The notes below the pieces were generated by a model. That model saw nothing but the letters and a program-made list of their open reading frames with translations, was not told the DNA's origin and searched no databases. A program made the position numbers and the translations under genes. From Chrysomallon squamiferum (taxonomy: Eukaryota; Animalia; Mollusca), in contig CM022676.1 in the NCBI GenBank assembly GCA_012295275.1, positions 7,874,001-7,938,000 on the forward strand: a stretch of 64,000 nt of DNA, written 5' to 3'. Below are positions 1,274 to 62,228 of this stretch, piece after piece; position 1 is the stretch's first letter, and every line of letters starts with the position of its first letter.

Positions 1274-2304
1274 CTCTCACTTCCAGGTTTATTACATTGC
1301 TGCGTGGCCTGTAATCACCACATCTCCACACTGTTCCTTGTTGACTGAGGCTGACAGATTTTACTATGAGGAGATTTGTGTCATTTGAACAGCGAAAACT
1401 GTGTACTTTTGGATGTTCACCCAAAACATAACACTGAGTATAGTTTTCTAATACACGAATCCTGTATTCTGTGTTATTCACGAACCAGGTAACTGTACGA
1501 GAAGGAAAATCACTCTGACAGATGAAAGTAAAAAGTGATCCAACAACTGCATATGGGCCTGATGTTGTTAATCTATAATGCTGACCTTAAATTAGAAGAA
1601 ACAAATTAAAAAAAAAATAATTTATATATTATAATTAAAATTAAAATAAATTCATATAAACAAAGTTATTTTTTTGTTATTACATATTTTCTATGTTACA
1701 GTACGCTGTATAATGGACGGATATTAAGCAGTGACGTTATGTTATGTAATGTTGACTTATATTACATTACATCCTATTATATCATATCGTATCATTGTAC
1801 TATTTTCTATAGTAGTATATTATATTGTACGACATTATTTTATATTATCAAAATTGCCTTTCTTTCTGGTTTAATGTATATGTTTTGCGCCAAAATAAGA
1901 AACTGCTGATGTTTAGCATGTAGACAAATATATACGTTATCATGAATTCACTGTATTAATGTGTACTGCGTTATCATGTAATTCACTGTATTAATGTGTA
2001 CTGCGTTATCATGTAATTCACTGTATTAATGTGTACTGCGTTGTGAACGTAATCATGAATTCACTGTATTAATGCGGAGAATGTCCACTTATATTTACAC
2101 AATCATACAGGTAATAAATCAGATAATAAAATTAGGACTATCAATCCATAACCATCGTCCATAATATAACGACAACTCCCTCCAGATTTCACAGTTACTA
2201 AATGAGATTAACTTAGAGATAAATAATTTGAATCTAAAATACATACCTTGTACGTACAATACACATCCCAGTATCATGAACACAGAGAATAACTTACAAC
2301 TCAT
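1274..2304 (-). CDS. Gene A (partial, continues off left edge): IgSF receptor; leader exon 2304-2247, V-like Ig exon 1585-1274
   Basis: 58-nt exon MSCKLFSVFMILGCVLYVQ-G ending CAAG|gtatgt. 312-nt open phase-1 exon (ttaag|GT...GAG|gtaaaa) encoding QHYRLTT..FTFIC..VTWFVNN..C..C..VWRCG..NLEVR. Close paralogue of gene C exons 1-2. Confidence 0.75.
1944..2075. repeat. Short tandem repeat (~34-nt unit AATTCACTGTATTAATGTGTACTGCGTTATCATG, 3-4 copies) in gene A intron 1
   Basis: Direct repeats read from sequence; the homologous gene C intron (~44970-45030) has about two copies. Confidence 0.8.
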
Positions 2305-2459
2305 TTCCAGTATTTTAGTTTTCATTGCCGTTAATAAAATAAAATTATTATTATTTGTTTTTTGTTTATTATTATTAGTATTTTTTATCGTTTCTTCACT
2401 ACTTTCTTGTTTTAAATTCTTCTTTTTTAATTTTCTGTTGCTATGTTACCAAATTTATT

Positions 2460-2830
2460 TCCTGTTTCACAAGTAAAACACCCGTTTTTTATAAAATAAC
2501 ATCTATAATATACTACATCCACTCGACTGACTTCAGCAGTTTGCTGGTTCAACAAATACTAACATGTATTTGTACATTCACACACTATAAGAAGAAACCA
2601 TACACCCAATCATAAAATGATCAGTTCGGAAATCTTGGGACATTCCAGTCGAGGTAAATAATGAGGTAACGGTCTGCTGATTAACACGTGACAACTACTA
2701 TTTTAGACCGAGGTAATCGTCGCTTCATGCGCAACCCGAATGGGTACTACTTTACAGAATATTGTCTTGGTGTAGATCTAATCAGACTACCTAAGAAAAA
2801 GGTCGCTCATAATCGGGGGTAATCATCGCC
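2460..2830 (-). promoter_or_regulatory. Conserved upstream (putative promoter/5'UTR) block of the receptor family
   Basis: Homologous block precedes the leader exons of A, B (~18520-18950, +) and C (~45450-45850, -) and recurs in the pseudogene cassettes. Function is inferred from position only. Confidence 0.4.
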
Positions 2831-58505: not shown

Positions 58506-61405
58506 CTTGAATAATAATAATAATAATAATAATAAATAAATAAAGAAAGAAATAAAGAAAGAAAGAAAGAAAGACATAAAGAAATAAAATTATACTAAAC
58601 TACACTACTTTATTTTTATTTTTATTACTATGTTATATTGTGTTATATTATGTTATTTTATGTTATTCTTTCATATTTTAATAAATATATGTAAATGAAG
58701 CCTTTTTTTAACTTATTATTTATGGGAGTCAGAGAGAAAAAATCAAGATAGAAAGAAAAAGAAGAAAAAAGCTATCTGGCCTATTTAAATATAGAAACTT
58801 GCGTCAGCAGTAAAGGTCAACGTCTACAACTACGTCATTTGAACCCCGGTTTTTCATGCTTGTTTGTATTCGAATGTTCACGAAATGTTTTCATGTTAGG
58901 AAAATTTGCTGCTAGTTTTACAAATATTAGCAATTAACAAAATCAAAATGGCGGCAGAGGTAGTTATTTTTTATCAAGTGTGCTTCTATTTTAAATCTAT
59001 GTAAGTGCGCATTCATTTTGAGGATAGACTGATGGGTGGAAGAATATGTCAATTCACAGAAAAACATACTGAGAAAAAAAAAAGACAGATGAATGAATGA
59101 ATGATTAACAATACTCCAGCATATAGAACTCTTAGAGTGAAAGAGAAAAATAAAACAATTTTATTTCCAAATTAACTGTAAAATATTAAATCAGTGTTGT
59201 CAGTTTCACGTATAATAATAATAATAATAATAATAATAATAATAATAATAATAATAATAATAATAATAATAATAATAAAAATAACCCTGTAACTTATTGT
59301 AAATACTTATATAATTATATATGCTATAGGTGATATACATATATATATACTATAAGCAGACAAACACAAACACAAACACACACACACACACACACACACA
59401 CACACACACACACTTACACACACACATTTATTCCGTATAAACCGAACACAATAGAACAAATACAGTAACTTGGCAGAAACAGTATAAGATATTCTGGATT
59501 ACATTTTTTGTGCGACTTCTCCCATGAATGGCTGGTTTTAAACAGAGTGGTAGAGTTACAACATACCAACGTGAAACTGATCAGTGACGTCATAACGTAA
59601 GAAAAACAACTTGACAAACAGCCATGTTGCCTAACTTAACCCACCATTCAAAATGGCCGGCCGTTATCTGTTTGTTACCATCTGTGGAAGTGTTAAATTT
59701 AATATTTTATTTCTAACGATACGCTATGTCCTTTTTAATTAATTTTATGTCTGATTGTTAATTAATACGTGTTAAATCCTGTATTTGAGTAATAATGATA
59801 CGTTATAATTCATTTTATGTATTGTTCATAATTAAATCTAATATTTGAATTATAATGATACATTGTAATCCATTTTATATATAGCTGTTAATTAGTAATA
59901 CTGACTAATTTTTGTTTAATTCAGTTTATCCATCCACCAACTCACTGCCCAGATATTTGTTAATATATAATTATATATGTAAGGGCGTATGTATGCGTTC
60001 TATACACACATACATAGATATATAAGCATAAAAAAGAGAAAAGTATTACATACATTCTTATAAAAGGAAATACATACGCACATTTATTCATACATTTAAA
60101 CACATACATAGACACACAGTCACACACGCACACACACATATATATAGATATATATATGTGTGTGTATATATACACACACATACACACACACATATATATA
60201 GATATACACATATATATTCAATAATGTGGACACGGTCTGTTTCTTTGTATCTGTCTGTCTGTCGCTCTGTTTCCCACACATTCACAAACACAGAGCACAA
60301 CACTTATTTAATAATTACTATACAAACATTAAAATAAACACAATGTAAATAAGAAACTGAAATTTGACAGTAAAATTCTGATAAACAAACCTCAGCACAC
60401 CTGACATAAAGCAACTGATAATACATAAAAAGGTTACTCAATATATTTCATCAGATTTTCTTTTCATAAAAAACATTTTTCACTTCTCTCCTTTAACACT
60501 TAAGAATACACGAGTGTTTCTACACCTTTTTCAGTTACTTTTGTCATGGGTGCATTTGACATCACATAACAAAAATATTTATTGCTGTAAATAATCTTTC
60601 ATATGCAGCTGCTTCATAACATACTAAAGTCGTCTGAAAGACGGATTCAAGGATTTTCAGTGGTGGTATATTAATTATTATAACTGTACAAATTAATAAT
60701 TTGTACCAATATTTTTGCAAATTGATGAGCATTGTGATTAAATATTTTGAATTACATAGCCACAGCACCAACAACAAAAGAACCAATGCAAAAGAAAGAG
60801 CAAAAAAACAAACAAACAAATTAAACCCCAGAAAAACGTATCTCCCTATTGTTCCCTGTTTCATTTACATATGCGCCAATATGTGCAATACTACATATGC
60901 AATCGTATAAAAAACAGATTATCGATAATTCATAGCTTTATTACATAAACGTCTAGTAATATTACTAACATTATAGTCTCTCTCTGTGTATATATACATA
61001 CATAGATATATACATACATACATACGAACATACATACATACATACATATGTACATATATATATATACATATATACATACATACATACATATATACATACT
61101 TACATGCATATATACATATATACATACATATATACGTCTGTAGGCCTCTGCATGTGCCTATATCTCTATTTATGTATGTATGTCTGTGTGCTTCTGTGTG
61201 TGTGTGTGGTTGTGTGTGTGCGTTTCTGTTAAAAAACTTCTTCACTCTACAGCGGGTACTAGGTGAACAAACTTGAAAGAGTTTTTATTCGCGTTATTTT
61301 ATTGAATACGAAGTATATAGATATCATACAGGAAGAAGCAAAGAAAAGATAGTAAAGAAAAAACTATATTTTTTATTAACGGCAGTGAAAACTAAAATAC
61401 TGGAA

Positions 61406-62228
61406 ATGAGTTGTAAGTTGTTCTGTGTGTTCGTGTTACTGGGATTTATTTGTATTGTACGTACAAGGTATGTATTTTATATTATCACATTATTTATCAG
61501 TATCTGAGTTAATCTCAGTAACTGTGAGATCTGGGTGGATTATACGTTATATATGGATGGCGATTATAACCCGGTGAATCTCTGCTACGCATTACTGACT
61601 AGTGTAAACTGAAATGCATAATTGTGTGATTCGAACTTTTTATATATATTTGTATTAAAAGTGAGACAATAACAAAACATAGCATAATATGACAGTCTGT
61701 AACACAAATTCATGCAACATAATATAATGCAATGTAATATTATATAACAAATCTTAAGAAAGTAATAATAATTATGAAACTACTACTACTACCACTACTA
61801 CTACTACTACTACAGCTACTACTACTACTAATAATAAGCATAACATAATTTAGCAACAAGGTAATTATAAACAAATAATTTGATTTAATTTAATTTATAT
61901 TAATTTTATTTTATTATAATTTTATTTAATTTAATTTAATTTAATTTAATTTTTTTAATTTATACACAGTATTAACAACATCATTCAGATATGCAGTTAT
62001 TGGATAACCTTTTAGTTTTACTTGTGAAGGAAATCGTTCTGTCTTTCTTTCTTCTATTATTGCATGGTTTGTCAATGATATTTTCGTAATGAACATCCAA
62101 AGAATACATTTTTTAACTGTTCATGTAAACTAATCATTCTCACAATAAGATCTGTCAACCTCAGTCAACTTGGAACAGATGTGGACTTTACAGGCCAAAC
62201 AACAATGAAATAAAAACTGAAGTGAAAG
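61406..62228 (+). pseudogene. Pseudogene E: frameshifted leader exon (61406-61467) and decayed V exon (~61970-62228)
   Basis: Leader is 62 nt versus 58 nt (4-nt insertion). V remnant has a GGA-TAA stop and internal deletions but retains TTAACAACATCA, GCATGGTTTGTCAAT and GAAGTGAAAG|gt. Confidence 0.8.

Follow-up and report, generated by a model that had tools for sequence, protein, structure and literature searches.

A diversifying cluster of immunoglobulin-superfamily receptor genes in Chrysomallon squamiferum

Organization of the cluster

A 64-kb window of the Chrysomallon squamiferum genome (contig CM022676.1, positions 7,874,001 to 7,938,000) contains a cluster of genes for immunoglobulin (Ig)-superfamily receptors. 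All coordinates below are positions in this window, which has a GC content of 30.8% and is rich in microsatellites. Family members were located by searching the window with its own exons, class by class. These searches found a single gene family with copies in both orientations. Of the window sequence, 80% falls within the spans of this family and 74% within duplicated blocks of at least 150 bases, in agreement with a preliminary description of this DNA in which one family filled nearly the whole window. The partial gene, the orphan tail and the mixed orientations of that description were all recovered. One gene, C, is complete; three (A, B and D) are partial or damaged, and the remainder is debris. 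Neither Rfam nor ARAGORN gave a match in the window.

The model of gene C (minus strand, 45250-36990) has 11 exons and encodes 567 aa, the same length as the intact receptor with four Ig domains in the preliminary description. Every intron is GT-AG, the phases are consistent, and there is no internal stop. A signal peptide exon (45250-45193) is followed by four Ig exons in the order V-I-V-I, namely V1 (44595-44284), I2 (43669-43409), V3 (43179-42868) and I4 (42651-42391). Then come an exon for the single transmembrane (TM) helix (41616-41500), two short cytoplasmic exons, c1 (41019-40989) and c2 (40612-40566), and three copies of a tail exon (38719-38618, 37675-37571 and 37087-36990). The first two copies each contain a tyrosine-based activation motif of immunoreceptors (ITAM), and the third is the terminal repeat. 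I2 and I4 score above the Pfam Ig cut-off. No charged residue is present in the membrane helix of gene C.

Gene D (58505-49051, minus strand) is composed of four Ig exons, V1 (58505-58191), I2 (57526-57266), V3 (57010-56705) and I4 (56318-56058), a TM exon (55486-55379) and five tail repeats. Three of the repeats lie at 53679-53575, 52823-52719 and 52371-52267, the fourth (50186-50102, 85 nt) bears a stop, and the terminal one is at 49211-49051. Both short cytoplasmic exons are missing, and a W is replaced by C in the fourth Ig domain. No family signal peptide exon or 5' block was found on its strand within 5.5 kb upstream of V1, in a scan that does recover the first exons of A and C. The first exon of D may lie beyond the window edge. 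An alternative first exon was sought among 37 candidates, nearly all of them microsatellite-derived, and none was accepted. One of them, a hydrophobic frame at 60864-60756, lies within a T-rich tract and is likely due to chance. The earlier view of D as a near-intact paralogue holds for its Ig exons, TM exon and tail repeats; it fails for the family signal peptide exon, for the strict ITAM, which D lacks, and for the repeat with a stop. Two introns of D carry a repeated insertion (50963-51260 and 53765-54096, 75% identical), and the open frames nearby have no Pfam match.

Gene A (2304-1274, minus strand) consists of a signal peptide exon (2304-2247) and an open V1 exon (1585-1274), and no exon beyond V1 was found before the window edge. 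Its V1 is 91% identical to that of gene C in DNA and 81% in protein. Gene B (19178-24737, plus strand) has a signal peptide exon (19178-19235) and an open V1 exon (20043-20348), followed by an I remnant that contains a stop (20884-21041), a TM exon (22411-22527), c1 (23021-23051), c2 (23379-23425) and two tyrosine-free repeats (23697-23747 and 24633-24737). The acceptor of its TM exon reads AA, with an in-frame AG 9 nt downstream. A single-V form is present as described earlier, with an open V1, and it is damaged in its TM acceptor, its I remnant and its repeats. The 3' end of gene B is cut by an assembly gap of 200 bases (24792-24991), directly after the last visible exon. Gene order and orientation across this gap are as assembled only. 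Remnants of a Tc1/mariner-type transposase (Pfam DDE_3) lie at 21344-21992 and 47208-48022 and are 88% identical over 650 bases. The former is inserted in gene B, after the I remnant and before the TM exon.

An orphan cytoplasmic tail (29619 to about 27690, minus strand) retains c2 (29619-29573), one repeat (28881-28777) and a last repeat starting from 27777. It has no ITAM, and no TM or Ig exon was found upstream of it. The five V pseudo-exons of the preliminary description were all found, all on the plus strand. Four belong to dead cassettes with a frameshifted V exon: p1 (7388-8143, V exon 7821-8143), p2 (10423-11223, V exon 10901-11223), p3 (31910-32232, V exon only) and p4 (34487-35283, V exon 34961-35283). 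The cassettes p1, p2 and p4 also have a signal-peptide-like exon. The V exons of p1 to p4 are 93-96% identical, and a one-base insertion and the loss of the F-strand Cys are common to all. These shared lesions indicate one death that was then amplified, rather than four, so that four of the five pseudo-exons are copies of one dead cassette. The fifth, pseudogene E (61406-62227), has a 62-nt signal-peptide-like exon; its V exon (61955-62227) contains stops and has lost an internal segment. Pseudogene E is head-to-head with D.

In total, 12 signal-peptide-like exons are dispersed across the window. The exon is tandemly duplicated at 5886/5987, 10321/10423, 34386/34487 and 18438/19178. The unit is about 100 bases in three cassettes, and the first copy is truncated or has no start codon.

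Fold, selection and turnover of the V1 domain

The structure model of V1 (predicted local distance difference test, pLDDT, 92.8) is a beta-sandwich with a core Cys-Trp-Cys. Strands run at 31-36, 39-46 and 51-55 and occupy positions that include C' and C'' (the strand names are our own assignment). The structure prediction and Foldseek comparison proposed in the preliminary description, run on V1, returned V domains of antibodies, nanobodies and T-cell receptors as the best matches, with template-modelling scores of about 0.6-0.74. The top structural match had a Z score of 12.7 and a root-mean-square deviation of 1.8 over 98 aligned positions. V1 is predicted to have a V-set fold. A homodimer prediction for V1 scored 0.00 and speaks neither for nor against a dimer.

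C23, W34 and C89 are invariant in the six V domains of the window, and C52 and C66 are kept beside this core. Judged from the residues rather than from model coordinates, C52-C66 is likely a second disulfide in V1. Where the V-set has D-x-G-x-Y-x-C, the motif here reads G-T/N-V/I-W-R-C, with W-R-C in the place of Y-x-C. None of the six V exons matched Pfam V-set at E up to 1, and their matches to the general Pfam Ig models were slightly below threshold. A profile of the V domains found no chain among PDB sequences at E 0.001, and no CEACAM chain was among its best 60 PDB sequence matches.

Site models M1a and M2a were compared on the four open V1 exons, of nine in the window, using our own likelihood code. 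M2a was preferred to M1a. Under three frequency models the likelihood ratio test (LRT) statistic was 17-20 with 101 codons, and it was 8-9 with the 82 codons that remained after trimming away from gaps. Of the two sets of null simulations, numbering 36 and 45, none came up to the observed values, the largest null values being 7.1 and 6.6. The control LRT was 0 for an I-domain quartet and 1.4 for a quartet of V3 plus V1. In this test, positive selection is seen in V1 among the four paralogues, and no such signal in the I domains. The description of the cluster as diversifying is supported by the same test. The pairwise ratios of nonsynonymous to synonymous substitution rates (dN/dS) were 0.7-1.2 for V1 and 0.5-0.6 for I2/I4.

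Between genes C and D, divergence is 31% in V1, 12-15% in I2, V3 and I4, and 24-26% in two intron stretches compared. Exon shuffling is not needed behind the high divergence of V1, because the introns themselves differ by 24-26% and the remaining exons are the slow ones. With correction for the 15 pairs compared, no gene-conversion tract reached significance, the smallest p being 0.026. The pseudo-V exons, whose identity to the open V1 exons is 64-72%, were rejected as donors of gene conversion for want of a significant tract.

The window could alternatively be an unstable, repeat-rich region with one generic adhesion gene and neutral debris, where the V1 signal stems from errors in the alignment or from a relaxation of constraint. 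Such a region would fit the amplification of four of the five pseudo-V exons after their death, the dispersal of signal-peptide-like exons and transposon remnants, the possible lack of function of genes A, B and D, and the single-ratio omega of V1, which is 0.8-1.4. It is, however, difficult to reconcile with simulated neutral drift of the four V1 exons, which were picked as the open ones among nine: they stayed stop-free in 6 of 5000 runs and kept the four Cys and two Trp in 0 of 5000. Neutral decay therefore does not explain V1. The preference for M2a also persisted after gap trimming, and no conversion tract survived correction. We regard neutral debris as a distinctly improbable account of the locus.

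The turnover of the locus is seen in recent duplicates, pseudogenes and lineage-specific paralogues. The V1 exons of A and C are 91% identical, five V exons are broken, a tail is orphaned, and there is no one-to-one pairing with the related genes of the vent snail Gigantopelta aegis. This pattern supports the proposal of birth-and-death evolution made in the preliminary description.

Non-coding repeats are also present in the window. At 13300-15100, a unit of 236-280 bases is repeated in tandem about seven times. The copies are 60-83% alike, and every one has an inverted repeat whose arms are about 29-37 bases. They resemble a satellite or a miniature inverted-repeat transposable element and are unrelated to the receptor exons. 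The plus-strand cassettes have another repeated non-coding element upstream of their signal peptide exons; at some positions it forms a 156-base tandem pair. Copies are located at 3530-4809, 4941-5415, 6464-7272, 9481-10477, 12570-12957, 17512-18235, 30035-31806, 33599-34530 and 59357-59624. A promoter module and a small mobile element are both conceivable interpretations of it.

Tail exons and relatives in other molluscs

The tail repeats are phase-1 exons of about 105 bases (102-105 nt for the ITAM exons of gene C). Their identity is 63-81% among ten copies compared, one row being two bases out of register. There are three repeats in C and five in D. As these exons are phase-1 and symmetrical, the ITAM unit can be gained or lost by exon duplication without a frameshift. 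The strict motif YxxL-x8-YxxL was found in two of the 12 tail-repeat exons examined, both in gene C: YSPL-x8-YDVL in repeat 1 and YSSL-x8-YDVL in repeat 2, whose exons are 71% identical in DNA. The tail of gene C also conforms to the general pattern of ITAM receptors, Yxx(L/I)-x6-8-Yxx(L/I). The repeats of D contain one relaxed match (YxxV-x8-YxxL) plus single YxxL halves, and the other repeats have single halves or no motif. There is no strict ITAM in D, B or the orphan tail. The expression "ITAM-bearing", which the preliminary description applied to the family, is, in the strict sense, right for gene C and not for these other copies.

When the C tail was shuffled in 100,000 trials, one strict ITAM appeared in 0.7% and two in none. 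The former is the fair chance figure, because both ITAMs of gene C stem from one duplicated exon. From its motifs, activation is the likelier reading of the C tail, though not the sole one.

A search of longer proteins with V1 gave a sole match, a 'CEACAM5-like' model of G. aegis (E 2e-41, 52% identity). Misses are expected, as the search was word-seeded. With the full G. aegis isoform as query, four more G. aegis paralogues were found among 8 matches. A search of short proteins with the V alignment yielded one distant match. The nearest named relatives are XP_041379697-700 plus the proteins that we number P0005-P0008, RefSeq models labelled 'CEACAM5-like/CEACAM1-like'. Homology is seen domain by domain in a shared layout, with identities of 49-54% for V1, 42-53% for the I domains, and 38-54% across V1, I2, V3 and I4.

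All three G. aegis paralogues with a full tail (P0004-P0006) have YSSL-x8-YEGL and a terminal VTYENV, and the x8 spacing of gene C is kept in 3/3. In an alignment restricted to the tail, the match of C repeat 1 was attained by 0 of 2000 shuffles. A weak homology of the C and G. aegis tails is suggested by this alignment. Identity among the G. aegis paralogues is 67-82% for the first V domain, as against 89-95% for the domain next to the membrane. For the locus of P0001-P0004, RefSeq predicts isoforms that lack the membrane exon, lack V1, or have another, ITAM-free tail. Such isoforms might be secreted or act as decoys.

With a profile built from seven V domains, 168 representatives were matched at E 0.001, and the following figures are from the 150 matches listed. 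Ninety-four align over at least 70 columns; W-x-C is present in 89 of them and at least four Cys in 86. Among the 23 listed matches with a membrane helix and a tail of at least 40 residues, 7 have a relaxed ITAM and 8 a motif like the tyrosine-based inhibitory motif of immunoreceptors (ITIM). Ten hand-picked matches were looked up. Eight were named, and all of these are molluscan (Gigantopelta, two Haliotis, Lottia, Ostrea, Tegillarca, Dreissena and Mactra). In the ESM Atlas, the top-ranked clusters have no common Pfam family and are mostly molluscan where known. The relatives by themselves make the host very likely a mollusc, and likely a gastropod close to G. aegis; an octopus origin, suggested by the microsatellites, was rejected. 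P0078 (Ostrea edulis), P0125 (Lottia) and P0105 (Haliotis rubra) have the same V signature and tails of repeated tyrosine motifs. The oyster tail has two Y-x11-Y pairs, and the limpet tail has nine tyrosines and three ITIM-like motifs. Three metagenome loci (54-61% GC) were dropped as chance matches; the two that were translated (L001 and L003) have no Ig exon.

A tree was built from 25 V domains. In it, sequences of the window and of G. aegis form a weakly supported group (60/93), which includes two long-branched Dreissena rows and one unnamed row. A single clade of window sequences was neither shown nor rejected (approximately unbiased test, p-AU 0.06). No one-to-one pairs of window and G. 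aegis V domains were observed in this tree. One-to-one orthology to a conserved adhesion gene, which the preliminary description named as evidence against its reading, was looked for and not found.

Possible function and comparison with known systems

Bacterial binding, Syk recruitment and promotion of phagocytosis have been shown for CgIgR, a receptor of the Pacific oyster with five Ig domains and an x8-spaced ITAM (Sun et al. 2020, PMC6994640). It is moderately probable that the window family is a family of microbe-recognising activating receptors, evolving by birth and death. This reading takes gene structure, motifs, V1 selection and turnover as observed and the fold as predicted; for expression, ligand and pathway it follows CgIgR and established ITAM biology. 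The product of gene C would be a cell-surface receptor on haemocytes or symbiont-facing epithelia, and its fast-evolving V1 tip would bind variable microbial surfaces. The ligand would drive receptor clustering, and a Src-family kinase would phosphorylate the paired ITAM tyrosines. The tandem SH2 domains of Syk/Shark could then dock on the phosphorylated ITAM, leading to ERK activation and phagocytosis. The locus itself would turn over by duplication, inversion and decay.

Several observations weigh against this reading. The intervals of pairwise dN/dS all include 1 in V1, as do those of I2/I4, and under a single ratio no region departs from 1. The selection test depends on four paralogues and our own code, and the control tree of the I domains differs in shape. 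The evidence for selection is, for these reasons of code and sample, good and not final. Of the loci with a V1, about nine in number, a single one is complete. The C motifs have T and R three places before the first Tyr, where the stricter ITAM consensus of PMC6994640 has D/E, and three of the four YxxL halves in the C tail also match the ITIM consensus. The sign of the signal is not settled, because the acidic residue is absent and these halves are ITIM-compatible. As for the relatives, the tail alignment of C repeat 2 to G. aegis was reached by 285 of 2000 shuffles, and BLASTP of a C repeat exon against the whole G. aegis protein gave no match. Among the matches listed, only 3 of the 23 distant relatives with helix and tail have a strict ITAM.

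The ITIM-compatible halves (VPYDVL, SSYSSL and VAYDVL, matching (S/I/V/L)xYxx(I/L/V)) would fit a CEACAM1-like adhesion or inhibitory receptor, in which tandem ITIMs recruit SHP-type phosphatases and V1 escapes exploiting microbial adhesins. Pathogen escape is a driver of change in the CEACAM N domain. The terminal VTYENV of the G. aegis tails is in line with such a receptor, as are the feature look-alikes of the whole G. aegis protein, which are HEPACAM2, CEACAM and CD22 clusters. The YxxL-x8-YxxL pair is, however, kept across the two species, and the residue two before the second Tyr is not (V in the window, A/S in G. aegis). Moreover, the oyster receptor with the same x8 spacing activates through Syk (PMC6994640). 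A CEACAM1-like role of gene C is considered unlikely, and an activating receptor remains our preferred reading.

Molluscs have no antibodies and distinguish between microbes and symbionts by other means. We put forward, as a tentative and rather doubtful proposal, that a molluscan family of variable Ig receptors, with the extra Cys pair and W-x-C and missed by Pfam V-set, is the lophotrochozoan counterpart of the vertebrate paired receptors. V1 would diversify, and the one-exon ITAM would be gained, lost or stripped of tyrosines, so that activating and dampened forms arise as well as decoys. The chemosymbiotic vent snails might use the family to pick or police their bacterial symbionts. The window provides a locus anatomy, with a selected V-set tip and an ITAM on a single duplicable exon, for a family that is auto-annotated as 'CEACAM5-like', 'CD22-like' and 'nephrin-like'. 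The expanded vent-snail family would thereby be linked to the oyster Syk pathway.

In Lan et al. 2021 (PMC7895826), the orthogroup OG0000013 'CEACAM5' is among the immune families expanded in G. aegis. The gene counts are 130 in G. aegis, 101 in C. squamiferum, 103 in Bathymodiolus platifrons and 59 in Lottia, with none in octopus or squid. Four 'CEACAM5' genes are in a file that we take, by its order and columns, as the oesophageal-gland-high list, and their identifiers are unlinked to P0001-P0008. From the shared label, we infer that OG0000013 contains the window family. The available text of that paper gives counts and a label, without domain, motif or locus analysis. The G. aegis proteins are similar to the window genes in the V-I-V-I order, the single TM helix, the YxxL-x8-YxxL tail and the divergence of paralogues, which is highest at the tip. 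They differ in having a fifth Ig domain, one ITAM and the terminal VTYENV, whereas the window genes have a repeated ITAM exon and no fifth domain.

CgIgR and gene C are both molluscan type I Ig receptors with the ITAM x8 spacing. By eye, and for the tail motif only, the quoted CgIgR motif resembles that of G. aegis (Y..LG....E.PYE.L in both). In contrast to the window family, CgIgR is described as one gene, whose product carries five Ig domains and a single ITAM, and the available text of PMC6994640 contains no cluster or selection analysis. Fast-changing molluscan genes for single-pass membrane or Ig proteins, with gene-content differences, are also known from Biomphalaria PTC2/GRC (PMC7494358) and from the pearl-oyster Ig clusters (PMC9646362). 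In these, a link to immunity has been shown or proposed and haplotype variation has been shown, whereas the window is one haplotype. The word 'ITAM' appears nowhere in the PTC2 paper (PMC7494358), and the pearl-oyster cluster genes often have fibronectin III domains (PMC9646362).

No tandem ITAM-bearing V-set receptor cluster in a mollusc was found in full-text searches of the literature, subscription papers being outside this coverage, and the review PMC11999971 names none in its available part. The preliminary description suggested an undescribed receptor complex. This wording was too strong, as both the expanded 'CEACAM5' orthogroup and CgIgR have been published. The exon-modular ITAM, however, appears not to have been, and likewise the signature of the domains and the selection on V1.

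An allorecognition or paired-receptor complex, in which polymorphic V domains bind conspecific ligands and separate self from non-self as in Hydractinia Alr or Botryllus fester/FcoR, is very unlikely here, and we know of no fusion/rejection system in gastropods. The overall design is the same: the Alr cluster (Huene et al., bioRxiv 10.1101/2022.03.04.482883) has clustered V-set/I-set receptors, pseudogenes and ITAM/ITIM tails, and Botryllus has the clustered ITAM/ITIM Ig receptors fester/FcoR (PMC12065747). Positive selection on V1 also speaks for such a complex. The Alr V domains, however, are without the core disulfide and mostly have a fold like fibronectin III (Fn3) (bioRxiv 10.1101/2022.03.04.482883), whereas the window domains keep the core Cys-Trp-Cys, add a second Cys pair and show no Fn3. 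Alr1 and Alr2 are proven polymorphic allodeterminants, and the window family is known here from one haplotype. Within the window, no ITIM-only member was found and none with a charged membrane residue that would pair with C, and the three G. aegis tails are near-identical, not opposed. The paired-receptor part of the preliminary description is thus not borne out within the 64 kb.

The vertebrate CEACAM, Siglec/CD22, CD300/TREM, NITR and KIR/LILR families are tandem Ig receptors with a variable N-terminal domain and tyrosine motifs. In the comparison with PDB sequences, the window family shows no link to them beyond the general Ig fold, and no activating/inhibitory pair is seen in the window. 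The CEACAM N domain is not known to have the core Cys pair. V1, with its invariant C23 and C89, departs from this feature, and its best PDB matches show no homology to CEACAM N domains. The window cluster works like the CEACAM-type and Alr clusters and is a member of neither.

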